From Escherichia coli (GTDB lineage: Bacteria > Pseudomonadota > Gammaproteobacteria > Enterobacterales > Enterobacteriaceae): a DNA stretch of 64,000 nt. The notes under the pieces were generated by a model. It searched no databases. It was not told where the DNA came from and saw only the letters and a program-made list of their open reading frames with translations. This document shows, piece after piece, positions 46,914 to 54,860 of this stretch. The DNA lies in assembly GCF_001677475.2 (NCBI RefSeq), contig NZ_CP015229.1; one strand, given 5' to 3'. The position numbers and the translations under genes were made by a program. The stretch's first letter is position 1. The number at the start of each line of letters is the position of its first letter.

Positions 46914-47578
46914 AACAGTTTCGCTATTGCCCGACAAACTCAACGCATCCTCCGTTCTGTTATGACTTTCACTATGTCAAACCGGGGATAGTCGCCATCT
47001 TTGGTGACAACGGCAGTGGCAAAAGTACGCTGGCGCAACTGATGGCGGGCTGGTATCCAGACTTTCTACCAGGAGAGATAACCGGCACGGGGACACTTCT
47101 CGGTACGCCCATTGGGCATCTCCCGCTTAATGAACAATCCGCCACCATCCAGCTCGTCCAGCAATCGCCCTATTTGCAGCTCTCCGGCTGTACCTTTAGC
47201 GTGGAAGAAGAAGTTGCCTTTGGGCCAGAAAATCTGTGTCTTGCTGAAAAAGAGATTATGGCGAGGATTGATGCCGCCCTGACTCTGAGCGAGTGCCAGC
47301 CGTTGCGCCATCGACACCCGGCAACACTCTCCGGTGGAGAGACACAGCGCGTGGTCATCGCCTGCGCTATCGCGATGCAGCCAAAACTATTAATTCTTGA
47401 TGAAGCCTTTAGCCGCCTGACGCCGCAGGCCAGCGAAATGCTGTTGCAGCGCTTACAACACTGGGCGTTTGAACGTGGTTCGCTGATTATTCTTTTTGAA
47501 CGTCATCGCACACCTTTCCTGAACTACTGCCAGCAAGCGTGGCAACTGCAAAACGGAGCGCTCCAGCCACTATGTTAA
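46895..47578 (+). CDS. ABC ATPase (EcfA-like), 227 aa
   Basis: ORF 46895..47578; Walker A GDNGSGKST, signature LSGGETQR, Walker B LLILDEA; overlaps the T gene by 19 nt. Confidence 0.85.
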   Translation: MDMVTLEQFRYCPTNSTHPPFCYDFHYVKPGIVAIFGDNGSGKSTLAQLMAGWYPDFLPGEITGTGTLLGTPIGHLPLNEQSATIQLVQQSPYLQLSGCTFSVEEEVAFGPENLCLAEKEIMARIDAALTLSECQPLRHRHPATLSGGETQRVVIACAIAMQPKLLILDEAFSRLTPQASEMLLQRLQHWAFERGSLIILFERHRTPFLNYCQQAWQLQNGALQPLC

Positions 47579-48249
47579 CGTTAAATCAGGTAACTTATCG
47601 CTGGCCTGGCGCGGCAACGGATTGTCTTTGCGACATTTCTCTGCAACTCAAACAAGGCGAATGGCTGGCGCTGACCGGCGACAATGGCGCAGGGAAATCG
47701 ACGCTGTTACGAGTAATGGCAGGTCTTCTTACGCCCACAGCCGGTACAGTTATGCTGCAACAACAGACGATGAAAAACCTGAAAAACCGCCAGCGCGCGG
47801 CAAAGATTGGCGTACTGTTTCAGGAAGCGGAAAACCAGCTTTTTCACAGCACCGTCGCTGACGAGATCGCATTTGGTTTGAAACTGCAAAAATGCCCGGC
47901 GGATGAAATCACTCAACGTACCCATGCTGCCCTGCAATGCTGTCAGTTAGCAGACACTGCCAGCGCGCACCCGTTGGATCTGCATAGTGCGCAGCGACGG
48001 ATGGTCGCCGTCGCCTGCCTGGAAGCACTCTCTCCGCCACTATTGCTGCTGGACGAGCCGAGTCGGGATTTTGACGAAAATTGGTTGAGCGTGTTTGAAA
48101 GCTGGCTGGAGAAGTGCCGCCAGCGAGGCTCGAGCGTCGTAGCAATCAGTCATGACGCCGCATTTACCCGGCGTCATTTCTCTCGTGTGGTGCGACTGGA
48201 AGATGGTGTAATCAGGAACGTTAATCCACCAGACGATATTCACCCGTAG
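47572..48249 (+). CDS. ABC ATPase (EcfA'-like) with a degenerate signature motif, 225 aa
   Basis: 3' part of ORF 47539..48249; start at MLTLNQVTY (ATG 47572, ATGTTAA overlap with the upstream stop); Walker A GDNGAGKST, Walker B LLLLDEP, H-loop ISHD; signature position reads LHSAQR. Confidence 0.8.
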   Translation: MLTLNQVTYRWPGAATDCLCDISLQLKQGEWLALTGDNGAGKSTLLRVMAGLLTPTAGTVMLQQQTMKNLKNRQRAAKIGVLFQEAENQLFHSTVADEIAFGLKLQKCPADEITQRTHAALQCCQLADTASAHPLDLHSAQRRMVAVACLEALSPPLLLLDEPSRDFDENWLSVFESWLEKCRQRGSSVVAISHDAAFTRRHFSRVVRLEDGVIRNVNPPDDIHP

Positions 48250-48934
48250 CGGTCATCATTAAAGTCAAATTTGCAGGCAGACTCTCTTCCAGCACCCGGC
48301 GAACATTCGGCCCGTCGGTACGGTCATAAAAAGCTTCTGCGTCTGCCAGTGATAACCCTCCCGCCAGCTTGCGCCCCACCAGTCGTTCCCGCAACGCAGT
48401 AGCTGGCGCATTGATAAAGATCGAGAAATCACAAAATTGCGCAAGCTGGCACCACTTCTCGTCGTCCAGCAACAACCAGTTTCCTTCGACGATGACGAGT
48501 GGTGCGGTAACGTGCAACGCATCTTCAACAGGATCATGCTTTTGTCGATCATACTGCGGCCACGCACAATCCCCTTCCACTACCTGGCGCAGGTTTTCCG
48601 CCAGTTTCGCTACATCGAATGTCTCTGGTGCGCCTTTGAAGGGGCGCAATTGATGCGCATCCAGCCAGCTATTGTAATGGTGAAAACCATCCATCGGGAG
48701 TGTCTGAATAGCGGGTAGTTCCGGGTCTTGTTGCGCGAGATATTCCCAGAAGGTGGTTAGGGTAGATTTACCCGTCCCCGGCGGAGCGCAAAGAAAAACC
48801 ACCGTACGCCGCTGCGGATTTACCGTCTGTAAGGCCGCCAGCATACGCAGTAGCGTTTTATGAACATTCTCAATTTCATCATCAGAGTACTGCGCCTGTA
48901 CCTTTAGTCCATTCACCGTCAGTTCGATTTTCAC
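48221..48934 (-). CDS. yggC: P-loop nucleoside/pantothenate kinase-like protein YggC, 237 aa
   Basis: ORF 48221..48934; P-loop GTGKST; 3' end overlaps the convergent EcfA' gene by 29 nt. Confidence 0.85.
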   Translation of the reverse strand: MKIELTVNGLKVQAQYSDDEIENVHKTLLRMLAALQTVNPQRRTVVFLCAPPGTGKSTLTTFWEYLAQQDPELPAIQTLPMDGFHHYNSWLDAHQLRPFKGAPETFDVAKLAENLRQVVEGDCAWPQYDRQKHDPVEDALHVTAPLVIVEGNWLLLDDEKWCQLAQFCDFSIFINAPATALRERLVGRKLAGGLSLADAEAFYDRTDGPNVRRVLEESLPANLTLMMTATGEYRLVD

Positions 48935-49440
48935 GGCGTTAATTCCTTTAAGGTTGTCGTTACTGCCAGCGTCAGCGCCGTTTTGACCATCCCGCTAAAA
49001 CGCGCCTCTGACCAGACGGCGAAATCGGCGAACTTCATCGCTTTCAACGCGTCATAGAGCGTCGCATTGCGGATTATGCTATTGACGTTGCTGATAAAAT
49101 CCCAGGTCATGTCATCGGCAAATCCGGGCATTTCATCCTGTTCGTTCAGGTAATGCCAGAACTGGGAAAAATGCGTGATATCGGCGTACAGCCATTTATC
49201 CATTTTCCCCAGCGCATAAATCAAACGCAGTGCAACATCAATATCGTCAAGCGGGCCGCTTTGGGCGAGTAACGGCTTCACTGCATATTCGACGATCTCT
49301 TCATCATTATCGACAAACAGCGACGGCAGAAACTGGCGTATCCCCTGGAGCAAAATAGAATGCGCAGTTTTCATAAATGAAAATAAATTGTCCTGTGCCT
49401 CCAGTTGCTCAAGCACATCATCTTCTGTCAGCGTCGCCAT
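48931..49440 (-). CDS. yggD: MtlR-like putative transcriptional regulator YggD, 169 aa
   Basis: ORF 48931..49440; 4-nt overlap with yggC. Confidence 0.85.
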   Translation of the reverse strand: MATLTEDDVLEQLEAQDNLFSFMKTAHSILLQGIRQFLPSLFVDNDEEIVEYAVKPLLAQSGPLDDIDVALRLIYALGKMDKWLYADITHFSQFWHYLNEQDEMPGFADDMTWDFISNVNSIIRNATLYDALKAMKFADFAVWSEARFSGMVKTALTLAVTTTLKELTP

Positions 49441-49461
49441 TGGTCTTCCGATAGATCACCA

Positions 49462-50427
49462 TCAATGCAGGGAGTCTATTATATTACACGTTTGGTCCGC
49501 GCCGCCGATCAGTAATGTCTGCGTCCGCACCCCATTCGCCGTCTGTTGGATTCCGTTCACCAACTCGCCGCCCGTCACGCCCGTAGCGCTAAAGAGGATA
49601 TCGTTCCCCCTCACCAGTTCATCGAGCGAGTACACACGGTTAACGTCAACGCCCATTTCCTTGCAACGCTTGCGCTCCTGCTCTGCAATCTGCCGATTTT
49701 CCGTGTAATCCCCTTTAGCCTGACAAAAGTCAATCAGCTCGGCCTGCATATCCCCGCCTAATGCTTTAACGGCACAGGCAGAAATCACGCCTTCTGGCGC
49801 ACCGCCGATGGTGTACATCACATCGTAAGGATTATCCTGCCAGCAGGTCAGCACGCTGGCGGCGACATCGCCATCCGGCAGGGCAAAAACCTTCACGCCC
49901 AGCTGTGTTGCTTCCTCAATTGCGGCACTCAGGCGCGGTTTATCCAGCGTAACCATACGCAGCTTGTCCAGCGGTTTGCCTAACGCTTTCGCCACGTTGC
50001 GCAAGTTGTCCGCCAGAGGCATGGACAGATCAATCGCGCCCGCCGCCAGCCGATTAACAACCAGTTTTTTCATATACATATCGGGCGCGTGTAACAGGCT
50101 ATCTCGAGGGGCGAAAGCCATGACCGCCAGCGCATTGCTCTGCCCCATCGCCACCATCCGCGTGCCTTCAATGGGATCGACCGCGATATCGACTTCTGGC
50201 CCATCGCCTTTGCCCACCTCTTCGCCAATCCACAGCATCGGCGCATGGTCAATTTCTCCCTCGCCGATAACCACTCGCCCACGAAAAGCGACGTCGTTCA
50301 ACGCCTGGCGCATCGCGGTGACCGCCAGGCCGTCGATTTTGTTTTTATCGCCACATCCGGTTTGCGGCCAGGCAGCCAACGCTGCCTGTTCCGTAACGCG
50401 AAATAATGGCCACGCCAGGGACATCAT
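49462..50427 (-). CDS. yggF: class II (GlpX-type) fructose-1,6-bisphosphatase YggF, 321 aa
   Basis: ORF 49462..50427. Confidence 0.85.
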   Translation of the reverse strand: MMSLAWPLFRVTEQAALAAWPQTGCGDKNKIDGLAVTAMRQALNDVAFRGRVVIGEGEIDHAPMLWIGEEVGKGDGPEVDIAVDPIEGTRMVAMGQSNALAVMAFAPRDSLLHAPDMYMKKLVVNRLAAGAIDLSMPLADNLRNVAKALGKPLDKLRMVTLDKPRLSAAIEEATQLGVKVFALPDGDVAASVLTCWQDNPYDVMYTIGGAPEGVISACAVKALGGDMQAELIDFCQAKGDYTENRQIAEQERKRCKEMGVDVNRVYSLDELVRGNDILFSATGVTGGELVNGIQQTANGVRTQTLLIGGADQTCNIIDSLH

Positions 50428-51701
50428 TGCGTGGTCTCCCCAATATCAACGCCAAATTGTGCCAGCAGATATTTCTCGGCCTGTTCATTCCAGATGCCGT
50501 GCGTTTCCTCAACCAACCGCGCCAGCTCTTTAAACAGCGGATCGGTTTTGCCTTTTTCGGCAAAATCGGCAATGGCAGTGAGCGGCATGGTCACGCCGTT
50601 ATAAATGAGTTTTTTACCGCCAGGGATATCCGGCAGATTGAGCACGGTTTCTGGCACCGCATCCAGGCCACCAATATGGGTCACCATAAACGACGGCTGT
50701 AACTGTCCTGTGGCGCTAAGGGCAATCGCCTCTTTCATGTCGTCCGTTGAACCGCCAGATGTACCGACGACGTGCGTGCTGTTGTAATGGACGTTGTAGA
50801 AATTAAACGGCACTTTGAAGTTTTTATCCGTCGGACCGGCAAAGAAGTTCAGACAGCCATCTTCCGCCAGTAATTCGTCAGCCATCTCAACGACAGCAGG
50901 CACCGCCGCATAAACAAAAATGTCATCGAACCCGGCATCTCCTGTAAGCGCCCGCAGCATCTGGACTGGATCGCTCATCCCTTTGGTATTCACATACACC
51001 AGCTCAATGCCTTTACTAGCCGCCAGTTCCACCGGCAGCAGCTTCTGTACCTGCGCCAGGCGTTTGTCGTCGATATCGACCACCACCACCCGCGACGGTT
51101 GTATGCCACCGTTAATGGCGTAATCGATAGCGCCAATGCCCATTGGACCAGCACAGGCCAGCAGTGCAATATTGCCGCCAGGTTTGACGCCCATGCGATG
51201 CTCATAAACATATTGCGTGGTGTGATAATTGGCATGATAAGCGCCAATAATGCAGCACATAGGCTCTGCCAGCGACGCAGCAGCAAAATAAGAGCCGTGA
51301 TACGGTAATACGCAGCCCAAATTAATGGCTACCTCTGGAATAATCATATAGGTGGCGTTACCGCCAAAATATTCGTAGCTGTAGCCCGCTGAATATCCGC
51401 TTGGTAACCCCATTGCCGGTTGCAATACAAAACGCTGGCCTTTTTTATATTTGCCGGTGAGATTTTTACCCACTTCAACAATAACCCCGGCACATTCATG
51501 TCCGGTAATGACCGGATGATTTTCTAAATCGTCGGATACGCGTTTATGTTCACTACCGAGTAACGCCGCTTTCCAGGTGGATAAACAGACGCTGTCAGAA
51601 ATTACACTCACTAACAGTTCATTATCGGTAATTTCTGGCAGTTCAAATTCGCGCAGACGGACATCCCGCTTGCCATAAATAGCAGCAACTTTGGTTTTCA
51701 T
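50424..51701 (-). CDS. yggP: Zn-dependent polyol/sugar-phosphate dehydrogenase (MDR family) YggP, 425 aa
   Basis: ORF 50424..51701; 4-nt overlap with yggF. Confidence 0.85.
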   Translation of the reverse strand: MKTKVAAIYGKRDVRLREFELPEITDNELLVSVISDSVCLSTWKAALLGSEHKRVSDDLENHPVITGHECAGVIVEVGKNLTGKYKKGQRFVLQPAMGLPSGYSAGYSYEYFGGNATYMIIPEVAINLGCVLPYHGSYFAAASLAEPMCCIIGAYHANYHTTQYVYEHRMGVKPGGNIALLACAGPMGIGAIDYAINGGIQPSRVVVVDIDDKRLAQVQKLLPVELAASKGIELVYVNTKGMSDPVQMLRALTGDAGFDDIFVYAAVPAVVEMADELLAEDGCLNFFAGPTDKNFKVPFNFYNVHYNSTHVVGTSGGSTDDMKEAIALSATGQLQPSFMVTHIGGLDAVPETVLNLPDIPGGKKLIYNGVTMPLTAIADFAEKGKTDPLFKELARLVEETHGIWNEQAEKYLLAQFGVDIGETTQ

Positions 51702-51715
51702 TTTTACCTCTGTAA

Positions 51716-53104
51716 TCAGTGTTTATGTTCGGCGGTTAATTGATTAAATAAAGTGTCGAGTTTTGGATCGCCAATATAGTTACTAATCAATATCAGTGGT
51801 TTATCCGTCACACGTTTCACGCGCCCTTCCAGACTGGCATGAGTAACGACGATATCCGCATCCGCAGGCACGTTTTCTATCGCGTAATGTTTTACTTCAA
51901 TTGCCAGCCCCGCTTTTTCCAGGCGTTTACGGAAGGTGGTCGCGCCCATCGCACTGGAGCCCATCCCCGCATCGCAAACAAAGGCGATACGCTTAACCTT
52001 GCTTAACGAGAATGCACCTTCTTGTTTCATCGCCTTAACCGCATTGGCTGACTGAGCAAACTCATATTCGCTCTCCGTTTCCACCGTTTTTTCCATCTTC
52101 AGTATCAGCGAAGTGATAGCAAAGGACACCAGGGTACCTACCGTAACACCGGCAATTGTCGCCAGGAATGAGCCTTTCGGCGTCAGCGCCAGGTAAGCAA
52201 AGATAGACCCCGGACTTGGGCCAGCCACCAGACCACCGTCCAGTAAGTTAAACATCCAGGTGCCAGACATACCGCCCGCAATCATGGCAATAATGGTCAG
52301 CGGCTTCATCAGCACATATGGGAAATACAGTTCGTGGATCCCACCGAGGAAGTGAATAATCATCGCCCCGGGCGCAGAACGTTTACTCATCCCTTTACCA
52401 AACAAGGTAAACGCCAGCAGCAGCCCCAGGCCCGGACCTGGGTTAGAGGCCACCATAAAGAAGATGGATTTACCGTTAACCGAAGCCTGTTGCATTCCCA
52501 GCGGATAATAGACGCCCTGATCGATCGCGTTATTGAGGAAAAGCACTTTCGCCGGTTCATTGATGACTGACAGCAGAGGCAGATAACCCGCATGTACCAG
52601 CGCCTCAATACACTCTTTGACGAAAGTATTGGCAATTAACACCGCCGGGCCGATCACTTCAAAACCCAGCAGACAAAGGAGCATCCCCGCGATACCTAAT
52701 GAGAAGTTATTGATAACCATCTCAAAACCGGCAGGTATGCGTTTTTCCAGTGCCTTATCGACATATTTTATGACCAGACCACCGAGCGGCCCCATAATCA
52801 TCGAACCAAGGAACATCGGGATCTCTGCGCCGACGATCACACCAATAGTACCTATTCCGCCCATGACCGCCCCGCGTTTACCGCCGACCAGATGACCACC
52901 GGTAGAACCAATCATCACGGGCAATAAATAGGTAATCATCGGGCCGACAATTTTGGCGAAATGTTCATTCGGCAGCCAACCGGTGGGAATAAATAACGCA
53001 GTTATAAAACCCCAGGCAATAAAAGCACCGATATTGGGAATGACCATTGCAGTCAAAAAGCCCCCAAAAGCCTGGACCCTTGCACGAGCAGACTTGTTTT
53101 CCAT
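51716..53104 (-). CDS. cmtA: PTS mannitol-family EIICB component (cryptic), 462 aa
   Basis: ORF 51716..53104; polytopic N-terminal domain plus C-terminal EIIB with conserved Cys (AFVCDAGMGSS). Confidence 0.9.
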   Translation of the reverse strand: MENKSARARVQAFGGFLTAMVIPNIGAFIAWGFITALFIPTGWLPNEHFAKIVGPMITYLLPVMIGSTGGHLVGGKRGAVMGGIGTIGVIVGAEIPMFLGSMIMGPLGGLVIKYVDKALEKRIPAGFEMVINNFSLGIAGMLLCLLGFEVIGPAVLIANTFVKECIEALVHAGYLPLLSVINEPAKVLFLNNAIDQGVYYPLGMQQASVNGKSIFFMVASNPGPGLGLLLAFTLFGKGMSKRSAPGAMIIHFLGGIHELYFPYVLMKPLTIIAMIAGGMSGTWMFNLLDGGLVAGPSPGSIFAYLALTPKGSFLATIAGVTVGTLVSFAITSLILKMEKTVETESEYEFAQSANAVKAMKQEGAFSLSKVKRIAFVCDAGMGSSAMGATTFRKRLEKAGLAIEVKHYAIENVPADADIVVTHASLEGRVKRVTDKPLILISNYIGDPKLDTLFNQLTAEHKH

Positions 53105-53131
53105 AATATTATCCTGTAGAGGAGAGAGTCA

Positions 53132-53575
53132 TTATCCGCGGCTGATTATGTCCGCTAATTGTTTTTCTGATGATGCTGTTAAGAGTTGTTCGAGTATTTC
53201 TTCTTCGCTCAGTAATTCACTTAACGCCTGAATAGCGCCAATGTGCGAATCGGCATCGGCAGCAGAAAGCCCGATGAGTAATTTAATCGGTTCGTCATTC
53301 CCCGGGAAATAAACGCCTTGTTTAAGTAACGTTAAAGACATCCCGGTTTTAAGCGCCCCACATTCCGGTCGAGCATGAGGCATTGCCACGCCTGGTGCGA
53401 GAATATAATAAGGACCATTGCTGATGGTGGAGTCTTTAATAGACTGAATGTAATTCTCGCTGATATAGTTTTTATCCAGCAATGATGCCATCGAGAAATC
53501 GATAGCTTCCTGCCAATCTTTTGCTGAATGTATAACTGAGATTGATGATTCTGGAAAATAATCAATAAGCCGCAT
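53132..53575 (-). CDS. cmtB: PTS mannitol-family EIIA component (cryptic), 147 aa
   Basis: ORF 53132..53575; EIIA-Mtl active-site His region (VAMPHAR). Confidence 0.9.
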   Translation of the reverse strand: MRLIDYFPESSISVIHSAKDWQEAIDFSMASLLDKNYISENYIQSIKDSTISNGPYYILAPGVAMPHARPECGALKTGMSLTLLKQGVYFPGNDEPIKLLIGLSAADADSHIGAIQALSELLSEEEILEQLLTASSEKQLADIISRG

Positions 53576-53951
53576 AAATTATCCTTATTTTATTTTTAGG
53601 GTACCGTCCGGCGGTAAAAATAAAATACTCGTGCGGTTTAATGAAAGCAATTGGGTACGCGAGAAGAAAAACCCCATGAACAAAAATAATAAAACTTTAA
53701 ATAACAACAACATGAAATTGATATTTTTAAAGTCAACTTTGTATTTGTTATGTTTATCACAAAATCAACATTTTGATTGTTGTTGTATTTGTGATGCATA
53801 TCGCCATTTATTTATTGAATGTCCGAAAACATACTTTTTTAATGCAATGTTTTTTCGCTATACCCCTTTATAGATTCTGAATTCTCACCTGTCGGCTATT
53901 TTCTCCTCACCTCATGTGACATATTCCCCACTTTACTCAAGGAAGATTCAT

Positions 53952-54860
53952 ATGAAAGCACCTGTTTCATTAACCTCATTTCGCCCACAAAAATCTATTG
54001 CTATCGCCATTGGCGTGCTTGCCGTGGTTGTGCTGCCATTTCTCTCGTATTACACCGTTAATGAAGGTGAACGCGGCATTTTGCTGCGCTACGGAAAAAT
54101 CGTAAAAGTTGCCGAGCCGGGTCTGGGTTTTAAGATCCCTTTTATGGAAAGCGTGGAGAAAATTTCCACGCGTAATCAGGCTGTGGTTTATCAGGGATTA
54201 CAGGCCTACAGCCGCGACCAGCAACCGGCACAAATGACAGTATCAGTCAGCTTCCACATTAAACCTTCAGAAGCTGGCGCAGTTTATACAACCTACAACA
54301 CCATTGAATCTTTAAAAGAGCGTCTGATCGTCCGCCAGCTGCCAACCCAACTGGAGAACGTTTTCGGGCAATATACAGCCATCAGCGCGGTACAGGATCG
54401 TACAAAACTGGTTCAGGATCTGCAAAATGCCATGCGTAAAGCCGTTGTTGGCCCGGTGGTGATTGATGGTGTTCAGATTGAAAATATTGATTTTTCTGAC
54501 GCTTATGAAAAATCGATTGAAGATCGAATGAAAGCAGAAGTCGCCATTGCCACACGTAAGCAAAATCTGGAAACAGAGAAAATCCAGGCGCAAATAGCGG
54601 TAACTCAGGCCCAGGCAGAGGCAGACAGTAAACTGGCGGCAGCCAAAGCAGAAGCGGAAACTATTCGCGTAAGAGGCGCGGCAGAGGCTTAAACTATTCG
54701 TTTAAAAAGTGCGGCTGAAGCAGAAGCGATCCGCCTGCGCGGTGAAGCTCTGCGGGATAATCCCGGACTTGTTGCCCTCACCACTGCTGAGCGTTGGGAC
54801 GGTAAGCTACCCGATACCATGATCCCCGGCAGTACAGTTCCGTTTATCTCTACTAAGTAA
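53952..54860 (+). pseudogene. SPFH/band-7 (prohibitin-like) membrane protein gene interrupted by an in-frame TAA at 54690..54692
   Basis: ORF 53916..54692 (start probably ATG 53952 with AAGGAAG upstream); N-terminal TM helix, SPFH-like core, AEA-rich tail; the same frame continues 54693..54860 (55 codons); the stop sits where the upstream repeat copy has GAA. Confidence 0.65.

Follow-up and report, generated by a model that had tools for sequence, protein, structure and literature searches.

Background

In the galactitol (gat) operon a PTS delivers a hexitol phosphate which a Zn-dependent MDR dehydrogenase (GatD) converts to a ketose phosphate; a kinase step leads from this to the bisphosphate, the substrate of a class II aldolase (GatY). 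In the L-sorbose (sor) operon SorE, a ketose-1-phosphate reductase, converts L-sorbose-1-phosphate to D-sorbitol-6-phosphate (PMC12817954). The mannitol repressor MtlR needs R167 and L178 for its contact with CRP, as well as two CRP sites 43–46 bp apart, and it reads the spacing of the CRP sites rather than the DNA sequence (PMC13421365).

The cmt cluster of E. coli owes the label "cryptic" to its historical name, cryptic mannitol. The cmtB/cmtA promoter of K-12 is CRP-dependent (PMC3105977; PMC12412646). In a screen of 198 compounds published in 2025 a PcmtA-gfp fusion had no polyol inducer, no polyol of the Biolog PM1/PM2 plates stood out, and the best inducers were nucleosides (PMC12412646). 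As uridine induced 13–14 transporter promoters in that study, the nucleoside effect is a general one. Deletion of cmtA raises the tobramycin MIC (PMC12412646), and the effect of mannitol on antibiotic tolerance in K-12 requires mtlA, not cmtA (PMC11656735).

Here we tentatively propose, while giving the proposal somewhat less than even confidence, that the six genes of this cluster constitute a single, horizontally mobile PTS operon which depends on CRP and serves the catabolism of a mannitol-like hexitol, with the steps given below.

Organization of the locus

In the 64-kb stretch of DNA that was analysed (the window), the list of open reading frames contains six intact, closely packed genes on the minus strand between positions 48221 and 53575, where the sequence-only reading had placed yggC to cmtB. 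The locus is the K-12 cluster cmtB-cmtA-yggP-yggF-yggD(fumE)-yggC, which has already been catalogued and is not new. All six gene starts are preceded by a Shine-Dalgarno-like motif (AAGGA in the case of cmtB). The claim that the genes mostly overlap by 4 nt was overstated, since only two of the five junctions (yggP/yggF and yggD/yggC) do so and the other three have gaps of 27, 14 and 21 nt. No terminator-like sites were found at the gene junctions by a consensus scan, which gave four matches in total and thus fewer than the shuffled sequences (mean 6.6).

Both flanks are strain-variable, as had been suggested, with an ECF island on one side and an SPFH gene on the other. Both are absent from K-12 and both are present in H1827/12, and the other genomes compared carry one without the other. 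The 3' end of yggC overlaps a convergent ECF ATPase gene by 29 nt, and the SPFH gene, which lies on the opposite strand, separates the module from tkt in the window. The cmt cluster itself is core in E. coli: of 5426 complete genomes, 5388 carry 80% or more of it, with an identity of 95–97%, and dN/dS values of 0.03–0.17 across all six genes indicate purifying selection.

Occurrence of the module in other species

For comparison 82 loci from other species were used. The same six genes are found in the same order in 21 Enterobacterales species and in at least four chromosomal contexts: beside tkt in Escherichia and Citrobacter, between menF and menD in Hafnia, and at other chromosomal sites in Limnobaculum and Providencia. 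Vibrionaceae, Clostridia and Alkalibacterium share with them a conserved core that consists of the EIIA and EIICB of the Mtl-type PTS, YggP and YggC. The extras vary between loci and comprise FBP enzymes, namely GlpX, PPi-PFK (4/82 loci within the counted span, while the PFK cluster covers five) and a class II FBP aldolase, whose gene directly follows YggC-YggP in four loci and of which one representative scored 394 against TIGR01859 (cut-off 343). The preservation of gene order across contexts, the recurring core, the dN/dS values and the tight spacing together argue for one functional module, which bears out the sequence-only reading on this point.

Transporter and enzymes

Profile models confirmed the families that had been assigned from the sequence, i.e. 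PTS EIIA and EIICB, GlpX-type, MtlR-like and P-loop kinase. CmtB (53132..53575, minus strand; 147 aa, PF00359) is a PTS EIIA of the mannitol/fructose class that scores 318 bits against the EIIA(Mtl) equivalog NF007358 (cut-off 192). CmtA (51716..53104, minus strand; 462 aa, PF02378 and PF02302) is an EIICB of the mannitol family which barely clears the mannitol models (590 vs 589 for PRK15083, 478 vs 468 for TIGR00851). It shares 52% identity with the IICB portion of a genuine MtlA, and the IIB active-site loop, C377-DAGMGSSAMGA, is the same in both. In Rahnella the module directly adjoins a complete mtlADR operon, which argues for a substrate other than mannitol, and mannitol is indeed a doubtful cmt substrate. 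The earlier reading, which described the substrate as unknown, agrees with the literature in this respect (PMC12412646).

YggP (50424..51701, minus strand; 425 aa, PF08240 and PF00107) is a Zn-dependent MDR dehydrogenase whose nearest named relative is SorE from the canonical Klebsiella sor operon (45.6% identity over 98% of the length, as against at most 29% for the next MDRs). An alignment of 45 YggP/SorE sequences shows almost no variation at the Zn ligands C39, H68, E69 and E146, the basic motifs are common to SorE, and the AF2 model has a pLDDT of 95.9. No solved structure of a close relative was found among the structure matches. The profiles thus uphold the earlier designation as a Zn-dependent dehydrogenase, whereas the sugar-phosphate part of that designation is an inference. 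In Firmicute operons of the type IICB, PRD-regulator, IIA, (kinase), YggP, the YggP gene sits in the mtlD slot. In about eight loci, however, YggP relatives (55–58% identity) occur with a 2-oxoacid dehydrogenase complex and without the kinase, so that the YggP clade is not bound to one pathway.

YggC (48221..48934, minus strand; 237 aa) belongs to the P-loop kinases, more precisely to family PRK09270 (PanK/Udk/PRK-like), and scores 519 bits against NF006742 (cut-off 402). Among structures 3C8U, which was deposited under the name "fructokinase", comes closest (E 1e-22); NCBI names the protein "nucleoside/nucleotide kinase family protein", and an independent prediction for its family is "sugar/polyol kinase" (PMC3223725). 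YggC adjoins YggP in 57/82 loci, and FruK, present in 10/82, never co-occurs with it. In eight Clostridia loci a PfkB gene lies directly upstream of YggP; two of these proteins were tested, and both clear the 1-phosphofructokinase equivalog (332 and 338 vs 292), remaining far under the tagatose-6-phosphate kinase cut-offs (160–180 vs 409–469). Because FruK replaces YggC in this mutually exclusive manner, YggC is probably a sugar-phosphate kinase, and we propose it as a candidate ketose-1-phosphate (fructose-1-phosphate) 6-kinase.

YggF (49462..50427, minus strand; 321 aa) is a GlpX-type class II fructose-1,6-bisphosphatase paralog (585 bits against TIGR00330, cut-off 259) that matches the GlpX structure 1NI9 (E 1e-110) and also 3ROJ and 5A5L, GlpX-type bifunctional FBPase/SBPases. 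The K-12 protein is reported to have FBPase activity in vitro (Brown et al. 2009, cited in PMC8719807). According to PMC8719807, YggF is the less efficient FBPase paralog and its deletion impairs fermentative growth on glycerol. A yggF/GlpX FBPase is present in only 21/82 loci; it is absent from the Rahnella, Budvicia, Vibrionaceae and Firmicute modules, and yggF is deleted in the Nissle-derived SYNB1934, with the same gap in three further E. coli genomes. YggF is for these reasons an accessory FBPase of the module, and the idea of a "complete" uptake-plus-catabolism route is unsupported in that form.

Proposed pathway

The kinship with SorE, the exchange of YggC for FruK and the FBP enzymes among the extras point to a route from a hexitol-1-phosphate via a ketose-1-phosphate, probably fructose-1-phosphate, to FBP. 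The polyol would be taken up and phosphorylated by CmtB/CmtA to the hexitol-1-phosphate, which YggP may then oxidise to a ketose-1-phosphate, most likely D-fructose-1-phosphate; the known enzyme of its clade, SorE, acts on a C2 carbonyl beside a phosphorylated C1. With the stereochemistry of SorE the polyol phosphate would be D-mannitol-1-phosphate, and the product would contrast with the fructose-6-phosphate made by MtlD. YggC is predicted to phosphorylate the ketose-1-phosphate to the 1,6-bisphosphate (FBP), as FruK would in some Clostridia, for cleavage by the housekeeping aldolase, while YggF, an Enterobacterales add-on, might send part of the FBP back to fructose-6-phosphate for biosynthesis, much like glpX in the glycerol operon. 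A point against this route is that E. coli possesses FruK, which would make YggC redundant for fructose-1-phosphate.

The same module could also carry out other chemistry, which we consider unlikely although worth some weight. YggP would then form a ketose-6-phosphate or a non-hexose ketose phosphate, e.g. from a talitol/altritol-type hexitol, a pentitol or a heptitol, YggC would phosphorylate C1 in the manner of phosphoribulokinase, and YggF (in Vibrio a PHP phosphatase) would strip one phosphate to give sedoheptulose-7-phosphate, xylulose-5-phosphate or a similar product for transketolase. Such chemistry would suit the position of YggC within the wider PRK/Udk/PanK kinase group, the bifunctional enzymes among the YggF matches and the silence of the Biolog polyols. 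In Vibrionaceae a YcdX-type PHP protein keeps the phosphatase slot in 14/14 loci, and transketolase genes adjoin the module in 17/82 loci from three lineages (Enterobacterales, Vibrionaceae with tal-tkt and Clostridia with a split tkt). However, the Enterobacterales adjacency may be plain synteny, the SPFH gene intervenes in the window, and the phosphatase is missing from Rahnella, Budvicia and most Firmicutes modules and hence cannot be an obligatory step. The replacement of YggC by a 1-phosphofructokinase rather than a tagatose-6-phosphate kinase and the FBP aldolase equivalog behind YggC-YggP also speak for fructose-1-phosphate and FBP.

YggD and the cmtB promoter

YggD (48931..49440, minus strand; 169 aa) matches Pfam MtlR (PF05068, E 7e-52) as its sole family in the profile search, in which no fumarase family was matched, and is nearly identical to structure 3C8G. 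Its current RefSeq name is "fumE, fumarase E", and it has been reported as a "verified fumarase E" that gave no ChIP-exo peaks (PMC8464067). Its role is disputed because of this annotation and the missing DNA binding, although a lack of ChIP-exo peaks fits anchoring through CRP. The MtlR residues R167 and L178 align with R147 and L158 of YggD, which are invariant in 42/42 module proteins. YggD is the sole regulator-like gene in 39/39 proteobacterial modules, and Firmicute modules have PRD-type or DeoR-type regulators in its place.

The AT-rich cmtB promoter/operator region (53576..53915, minus strand; about 33% GC) contains a distal CRP-like site, GGCGATATGCATCACA (53790..53805, minus strand; 8/10 core matches), and a proximal one, TGTGATAAACATAACA (53746..53761, minus strand; 9/10), centred 222.5 and 178.5 nt upstream of the cmtB ATG. 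These pattern matches are 44 bp apart both in the window and in K-12, where the distal site has the same position and a different sequence, and they are the sole CRP-like pair at 43–46 bp within the window. Such a pair occurs in 25/27 Enterobacterales modules (shuffles: mean 0.53, maximum 4) and, at a stricter threshold, in 15/27 (0.007 in shuffles). The scan was validated on the mtl operator, where it recovered the published site spacings. Only loci with a YggD gene show the spacing peak at 44–45 bp, and the spacing is kept while the site sequences drift.

Taken together this favours YggD as a CRP-anchored regulator of the MtlR type. Being devoid of a DNA-binding domain, it would act as the repressor of the operon by docking on the two CRP dimers 44 bp apart upstream of cmtB, so that activation by CRP is blocked, and it would presumably be removed by the dephosphorylated IIB domain of CmtA during substrate transport.

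The combination of nucleoside induction and tandem CRP-like sites could instead mean control of the CytR type. CytR also acts between tandem CRP dimers, and MtlR, which does not read the sequence, could bind any 44-bp pair. That the sites serve such another anti-activator, by CytR-type control or MtlR cross-repression, with YggD not being the operon's regulator, seems to us rather improbable: nucleosides are the best PcmtA inducers, yet theirs is a general effect, and the spacing peak restricted to YggD-encoding loci as well as the two invariant contact residues favour YggD. Cross-repression by MtlR could, however, add to the effect of YggD.

Integrity of the module

That there is no dedicated pathway at all, the cluster being a silent evolutionary remnant whose parts act independently, is quite improbable. 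YggD would then be a minor fumarase (FumE), YggF a back-up FBPase, YggC a nucleoside/nucleotide kinase and CmtAB a low-level transporter that also admits aminoglycosides. The "cryptic" label, the reported activities of YggD and YggF with the glycerol phenotype, the tobramycin effect, the NCBI name of YggC along with the nucleoside induction and the loss of yggF in some E. coli would agree with this, but all six genes are under purifying selection and the cluster is retained in nearly all of the complete genomes. The module also travels as one block across chromosomal sites and phyla, its core and order being conserved, and YggD, which matched no fumarase family, keeps its CRP-contact residues beside a conserved tandem-CRP promoter.

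A reductive, sorbose-like route, in which the PTS yields a ketose-1-phosphate that YggP reduces to a hexitol phosphate for oxidation to fructose-6-phosphate by an unlinked MtlD or SrlD, is exactly the reaction of SorE, the nearest characterised relative of YggP, and the Fru/Mtl PTS family includes ketose transporters, but it is very improbable in that it gives the conserved kinase nothing to do and leaves both the FruK replacement and the neighbouring FBP enzymes unexplained, in that CmtA clears mannitol-specific models and shares 52% identity with MtlA, and in that sor operons have their own second dehydrogenase (SDR), which the cmt module lacks.

Comparison with known systems

The proposed cmt operon resembles mtlA-mtlD-mtlR in its Mtl-family PTS, after which come a dehydrogenase and a protein of the MtlR family, and in a CRP-dependent promoter with CRP sites (CRP-like in cmt) 44 bp apart. 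In contrast to mtl, it encodes the EIIA as a protein of its own, has a Zn-MDR of the SorE clade instead of MtlD, and also includes a P-loop kinase and a GlpX paralog. The identity between YggD and MtlR is just 26–29%, YggD matches a different NCBIfam model, two CRP-like sites compare with five at mtl, and K-12 cmt is neither induced by mannitol nor needed for it.

The cmt operon is linked to the sor operon (sorCDFBAME) by YggP and SorE, which make up a small MDR clade of their own (46% identity at full length) with shared Zn ligands and basic motifs and are both encoded in PTS operons. The sor operon, however, has a mannose-family EIIABCD, a SorC regulator, a second dehydrogenase (SDR) and no kinase, and the direction proposed for cmt is oxidative.

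The proposed flow from a ketose-1-phosphate to FBP is that of fruBKA, and FruK stands in YggC's place in 8–10 Clostridia loci. YggC is nevertheless a P-loop kinase of a sequence family unrelated to the PfkB kinase FruK, and fructose-1-phosphate would come from dehydrogenation of a polyol phosphate and not directly from the PTS. The order of steps proposed for cmt is the same as in the gat operon, although the proteobacterial cluster does not include an aldolase, the PTS belongs to another family and GatD is not among the YggP sequence matches to solved structures. Finally, glpFKX has another substrate and transporter, and YggF is the less efficient paralog, dispensable in several lineages; but glpFKX, too, is a catabolic operon that carries a GlpX-type FBPase and feeds its product into glycolysis at the level of FBP or lower down.

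Gene layout and conservation of the cmt cluster

The six genes of the cmt cluster, the "cryptic mannitol" operon of E. coli K-12, were found in tandem on the minus strand, precisely in the place that the sequence-only reading had given: cmtB (53132-53575, PTS EIIA type 2), cmtA (51716-53104, PTS EIIC and EIIB), yggP (50424-51701, Zn-MDR dehydrogenase), yggF (49462-50427, GlpX class II FBPase), yggD (48931-49440, Pfam MtlR) and yggC (48221-48934, a P-loop kinase of the PRK09270 group with a distant likeness to PanK and Udk). The domain content ascribed to the six proteins was borne out by Pfam and NCBIfam family scans. The description of the junctions as mostly 4-nt overlaps was overstated, as only two of the five are overlaps; in order from cmtB there are a 27-nt gap, a 14-nt gap, a 4-nt overlap, a 21-nt gap and a 4-nt overlap. 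A Shine-Dalgarno-like motif precedes all six start codons. A consensus scan found no terminator-like site at the gene junctions, which is a weak negative because its matches were intragenic and fewer than expected by chance, and a consensus promoter scan of the cluster gave no usable promoter.

The locus itself is no discovery, its genes being known from catalogues of E. coli K-12 since the 1990s; the order in K-12 is epd-yggC-fumE-glpX(yggF)-yggP-cmtA-cmtB-tkt. Of 5426 complete E. coli genomes, 5388 carry at least 80% of the cluster with 95–97% identity to the window, and the cluster in the window is 92% identical to that of E. albertii. In comparisons with K-12, E. albertii and Citrobacter, dN/dS of the six intact genes ranges from 0.03 to 0.17. 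A decaying cluster is rejected by values of at most 0.17 together with the near-universal presence, and "cryptic" does not equal decaying here.

The DNA on both flanks had been taken to be strain-variable, and indeed the two flanks vary independently between strains. The layout of the window is also seen in strain H1827/12, an ECF-transporter island lying past yggC and a prohibitin/SPFH gene past cmtB. This SPFH/prohibitin gene, located in the window between cmtB and tktA (53952-54860, plus strand), matches WP_000646928 of H1827/12 in 299 of 302 residues and has an in-frame stop at codon 247 (54690-54692) that removes the final 55 residues, making this a nonsense allele and perhaps a pseudogene. 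On the other side, the yggC allele of the window is mosaic, its protein showing 85% identity to K-12 (dN 0.107, dS 0.65) and 95–96% to E. albertii and H1827/12, which indicates that the allele moves together with the ECF island. At their 3' ends, yggC and the convergent ECF ATPase gene (47539-48249) overlap by 29 nt.

NZ_CP137739.1 (187 kb) and CP088472.1 (33 kb), both listed as plasmids of E. coli, contain yggP (and glpX/yggF) with 97–99% protein identity and are either real plasmid copies or mis-assigned chromosomal contigs. A predicted E. coli protein of 671 aa (P0015), which combines PTS_EIIC with two ADH domains, looks like a cmtA-yggP read-through or a fusion call in some assemblies.

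Distribution of the module

When a single genome of each GTDB species was scanned by pattern, at least 570 contig stretches were found to encode YggP relatives. The best 80 of these and the loci obtained by exact protein look-up gave 82 non-redundant loci, which were analyzed by tblastn of the six proteins, clustering of ORFs, Pfam and NCBIfam scans of the cluster representatives and architecture strings. EIIA was found in 59 of these 82 loci, EIICB and YggC in 57 each, a YggD-type protein in 39, a GlpX paralog in 21 and a PHP-domain protein in 14.

All six genes in the same order are found in 21 species of Enterobacterales in at least four chromosomal contexts, including beside tkt (Escherichia, Citrobacter), between menF and menD (Hafnia) and elsewhere (Limnobaculum, Providencia). 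Rahnella and Budvicia share this order minus GlpX. In Rahnella (loci L028 and L029, 8078-17822) the five-gene module is located between glyQS and a full canonical mtlA-mtlD-mtlR operon, immediately upstream of the latter, so that two MtlR-family proteins and two Mtl-type PTSs are encoded side by side. The Vibrionaceae, with 14 loci (L004, L032, L035-L041, L045, L046, L048, L049 and L057), have EIIA, EIICB, YggP, a YggD-like protein and YggC, followed by a YcdX-type PHP phosphoesterase; tkt is located upstream in four of them, three of which also have tal.

Clostridia and Alkalibacterium show the order PRD-type regulator, EIIA, YggC, EIICB and YggP, sometimes accompanied by a PPi-dependent PFK, a split transketolase or HPr/EI. 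Eight loci of Clostridia have a PfkB kinase directly upstream of YggP, the longer contigs reading EIICB, PRD regulator, EIIA, PfkB kinase and YggP. Clostridium ljungdahlii and Geosporobacter are examples of bacteria with such operons containing FruK. Anaerostipes-like Lachnospiraceae possess a YggC-YggP pair, in most cases next to a divergently oriented DeoR regulator. In four loci (L053, L056, L058 and L059) the pair is directly followed by a class II aldolase gene, and two of these loci have the divergent DeoR; as no PTS gene adjoins the pair there, uptake must use something else. Finally, about eight loci combine DeoR, YggP and a 2-oxoacid dehydrogenase complex without the kinase, indicating that the YggP clade is not bound to one pathway.

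The conserved core of the module consists of the Mtl-type PTS, YggP and the kinase. The view of the six genes as a complete route of uptake and catabolism is partly supported: the module is real and mobile, YggF being an add-on outside its conserved core. That the genes work together as one functional catabolic module is very likely.

YggF as an add-on to the module

YggF is a class II FBPase of the GlpX type by its match to TIGR00330 (585 versus a model cut-off of 259) and to the structures 1NI9 and 3D1R (E 1e-110), the activity being taken from the literature on the K-12 protein, which is 99% identical to that of the window. According to the passage of PMC8719807 that cites Brown et al. 2009, YggF is active as an FBPase in vitro, and fermentative growth on glycerol suffers when it is deleted. 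The name "YggF" in one preprint was set aside as a misprint for YgfF.

The status of an add-on fits the deletion of about 650 bp in the Nissle-derived strain SYNB1934 (locus L089, 2663-2978), where yggF is internally deleted and annotated as a pseudogene while the other five genes are intact. Three further genomes (matches H6, H7 and H44) show the same gap at the level of coverage, suggesting that one E. coli lineage has lost the FBPase paralog.

In all 14 Vibrionaceae loci, the PHP phosphoesterase (248 aa, YcdX-type, 357 bits to NF006702) follows YggC, about 2.6 kb downstream of the YggP start. Enterobacterales lack a gene at this place, and the phosphoesterase may substitute for the GlpX paralog.

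YggP belongs to the SorE clade

The nearest named relative of YggP is the sorE product of the canonical Klebsiella sor operon, with 45.6% identity over 98% of the length, followed by a sor-type gene product of Lactiplantibacillus with 42%, whereas the next MDRs after the SorE types reach at most 29%. The clade is small, comprising 221 representatives at E ≤1e-30 among 1.84 billion. The Zn ligands C39, H68, E69 and E146 are nearly invariant in an alignment of 45 YggP/SorE sequences and present in SorE, and the basic motifs HK[RK]VP and GGKKLIY are common to both proteins. By sequence, YggP is thus a member of the SorE-type ketose-1-phosphate reductase clade of Zn-MDRs. The operon context of SorE, with a sorbose PTS of the mannose family and a sorbitol-6-phosphate dehydrogenase, is not found around yggP, which has a Mtl-type PTS and a kinase beside it and no SDR partner, so that YggP constitutes a paralogous subfamily and not SorE itself.

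For YggP no close solved structure was found. Its AlphaFold model reached a pLDDT of 95.9 with 45 sequences (a model from a 14-sequence alignment, with a pLDDT of 56, was discarded). As the Foldseek matches were all generic Zn-MDRs (polyol, threonine and alcohol dehydrogenases) with 16–22% identity, the structure adds no information on the substrate.

SorE is a reductase that forms D-sorbitol-6-phosphate from L-sorbose-1-phosphate (PMC12817954). This pair of substrate and product implies that it acts on the C2 carbonyl beside the phosphorylated C1. L-sorbose-1-phosphate and D-fructose-1-phosphate are identical from C1 to C4 in their textbook configurations, and fructose-1-phosphate, if reduced along the stereochemical course of SorE, would yield D-mannitol-1-phosphate. 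In the Firmicute operons, YggP takes the position of mtlD in the classical layout mtlA-mtlR-mtlF-mtlD. Judging from clade and gene neighborhood, YggP probably acts on a phosphorylated hexitol/ketose pair.

Within yggP, the motif CTGGCGGCAATATTGCA (51165-51181, minus strand) is kept exactly in the window; in K-12 yggP this motif has been reported to bind sigma-54 as an intragenic site, which lies 744 nt upstream of yggF (PMC4591121).

YggC as a candidate 1-phosphofructokinase

YggC is a member of the P-loop PanK/Udk/PRK-like kinases (PRK09270 "FrcK/YggC"), as seen from its match to NF006742 (519 versus a cut-off of 402), weak matches to PanK and Udk models, an E value of 1e-22 to 3C8U and a Walker A motif GTGKST in the translation. 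It is not a member of the PfkB family. A prediction from 2011 made the YggC family a "sugar/polyol kinase" and described tests as "in progress" (PMC3223725).

YggC (57 loci) and FruK (10 loci) never co-occur in the 82 analyzed loci, which is the pattern expected of a non-orthologous replacement. Both tested representatives of the PfkB genes beside yggP pass the 1-phosphofructokinase equivalog (332 and 338 versus 292). The other variable metabolic neighbors of the module, namely the GlpX FBPase, the PPi-PFK and the FBP aldolase (the representative from L053 scoring 394 versus 343 with TIGR01859), all handle fructose-1,6-bisphosphate (FBP). From these comparisons, YggC is reasonably likely to be a sugar-phosphate kinase, and its putative role as a 1-phosphofructokinase, forming FBP from fructose-1-phosphate, is indirectly supported by its mutually exclusive replacement by FruK and by the neighboring FBP enzymes.

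The PTS proteins CmtA and CmtB

CmtA contains the EIIC and EIIB domains (PF02378 and PF02302) and is by sequence a mannitol-family EIICB resembling MtlA, barely clearing the mannitol models (590.2 versus 589 for PRK15083 and 477.8 versus 468.4 for TIGR00851). The active-site loop of its IIB domain, C377-DAGMGSSAMGA, is the same as in MtlA. CmtB is a PTS EIIA type 2 of the Mtl/Fru class (PF00359 with E 1e-30; NF007358, 318.5 versus 192) with the motif GVAMPHA in the translation. The mannitol phenotype of K-12 depends on mtlA and is independent of cmtA (PMC11656735). CmtAB influences aminoglycoside uptake, which gives the operon a medical interest (PMC12412646).

YggD and a proposed regulation anchored on CRP

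YggD matches PF05068 over residues 5-167 (E 7e-52) as its sole Pfam match and is nearly identical to the structure 3C8G; it is a member of the MtlR family without a canonical DNA-binding domain. In the passages of PMC8464067 on the K-12 protein, YggD is described as having no ChIP-exo peaks and is termed "verified as fumarase E". A fumarase activity in vitro is reported for it, as cited there. Our Pfam and NCBIfam scans gave MtlR-family models only and no match to any fumarate hydratase family of class I or class II. The current RefSeq name of yggD, fumE, is a probable mis-annotation.

MtlR does not bind DNA by itself. [quoted passage not shown] When MtlR of E. coli and of Rahnella is aligned with five YggD orthologs, no more than 21 columns are invariant, and both residues fall within them. 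The corresponding R147 and L158 of YggD do not vary in any of the 42 module proteins, in which only 25 positions are conserved to at least 95%.

Upstream of cmtB, pattern matches in the window reveal a distal CRP-like site (53790-53805) and a proximal one (53746-53761), centered at -222.5 and -178.5 relative to the cmtB ATG and hence 44 bp apart from center to center. K-12 has CRP-like sites with different sequences at the same two positions. A pair spaced by 43–46 bp with at least 7 of 10 core matches exists in 25 of 27 Enterobacterales modules (shuffled sequences: mean 0.53, maximum 4), and at 8 of 10 core matches in 15 of 27 (shuffled sequences: 0.007), the spacing histogram having a sharp peak at 44. 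The same scan applied to mtl found all five published sites with spacings of 43, 44, 73 and 44 bp, and within the 64-kb window the pair at cmtB is the sole one spaced by 43–46 bp. A search of the window with the single CRP consensus was not significant (2 matches versus 2.04 expected), so that only the spacing of the pair and its conservation carry weight. Among the 14 Vibrionaceae modules the pair was found in none at the stricter threshold and in seven at the looser one, which agrees with the remark in PMC13421365 on divergence outside Enterobacterales.

The cmtB promoter thus has the two predicted CRP sites at the spacing used by MtlR, and activation of the cmtB/cmtA promoter by CRP has been reported (PMC3105977; PMC12412646). 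The YggD-type protein is the only regulator-like gene product of the proteobacterial modules; Firmicutes have PRD-type or DeoR-type regulators instead. Taking residues and site spacing together, we consider YggD to be more likely than not a CRP-anchored regulator of the cmt operon, most likely its repressor. The negative ChIP-exo result would also be explained by such anchoring. The IIB loop of CmtA is conserved, and sequestration of YggD by the dephosphorylated IIB domain, in competition with HPr, may operate here as well.

The spacer between the two sites (53762-53789) contains in its K-12 equivalent the sequence TGCAAT, which we take to resemble a CytR half-site, and an input of CytR at the cmt promoter is possible. 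Among 198 Biolog compounds tested with PcmtA-gfp, the best inducers were uridine and other nucleosides and no polyol, uridine also inducing 13–14 transporter promoters (PMC12412646). A link between this induction and the name "nucleoside kinase" of YggC was set aside because those promoters are unrelated.

A possible route and its alternatives

The chemistry of the SorE type and the replacement of YggC by FruK lead to a model in which YggP would convert a hexitol-1-phosphate to a ketose-1-phosphate, probably fructose-1-phosphate, which YggC would phosphorylate to FBP. YggF would then return FBP to fructose-6-phosphate for biosynthesis, as glpX does in the glycerol operon. The ATP cost of this route is equal to that of the MtlD route followed by PfkA. 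That the pathway runs specifically via fructose-1-phosphate to FBP is a serious but still tentative proposal.

The recurrence of transketolase neighbors, seen in 17 of the 82 analyzed loci and in three lineages, together with the phosphatase slot in Vibrio, leaves room for another possibility, namely that the bisphosphate is trimmed to an intermediate of the pentose phosphate pathway. The substrate might then be a heptitol, via sedoheptulose, or a pentitol, for which the adjoining tkt and the SBPase relatives of GlpX can be cited; however, the kinase and aldolase that replace or extend the module elsewhere are FBP-specific equivalogs, and the route via a ketose-1-phosphate to FBP remains our lead. 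Mannitol, with no induction, no K-12 phenotype and a Rahnella module beside a full mtl operon, is a weak candidate and unlikely to be the natural substrate.

In the literature we found no report of a substrate of the cmt cluster, and the Biolog plates may not include the true polyol.

Comparison with known systems

As a near-universal E. coli operon catalogued as a "known unknown", the cluster makes for a modest finding as written, and the names of three of its products are weak or disputed ("zinc-binding dehydrogenase" for YggP, "nucleoside/nucleotide kinase family" for YggC, "fumarase E" for YggD). The gain lies in a concrete model, testable at low cost, for an operon that has been an orphan for 30 years, and in a likely second case of MtlR/CRP anchoring. 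The full combination, in which cmt would be an undescribed polyol route from hexitol-1-phosphate to fructose-1-phosphate by a SorE-clade enzyme, with YggC as a non-PfkB 1-phosphofructokinase and YggD as a second MtlR-type anti-activator on the 44-bp CRP pair, maybe with cross-talk to MtlR, is conceivable from the sequences but rather doubtful as a whole. If true, it would define a new kinase family for ketose-1-phosphates and correct the fumE annotation that has spread to thousands of genomes.

The spacing of 43–46 bp has been called unique to mtl among the annotated CRP-regulated units in PMC13421365, in which neither YggD nor cmt is mentioned. If our model holds, cmt would be the second promoter with this geometry, and the CRP-anchoring mechanism of MtlR would reach a second operon.
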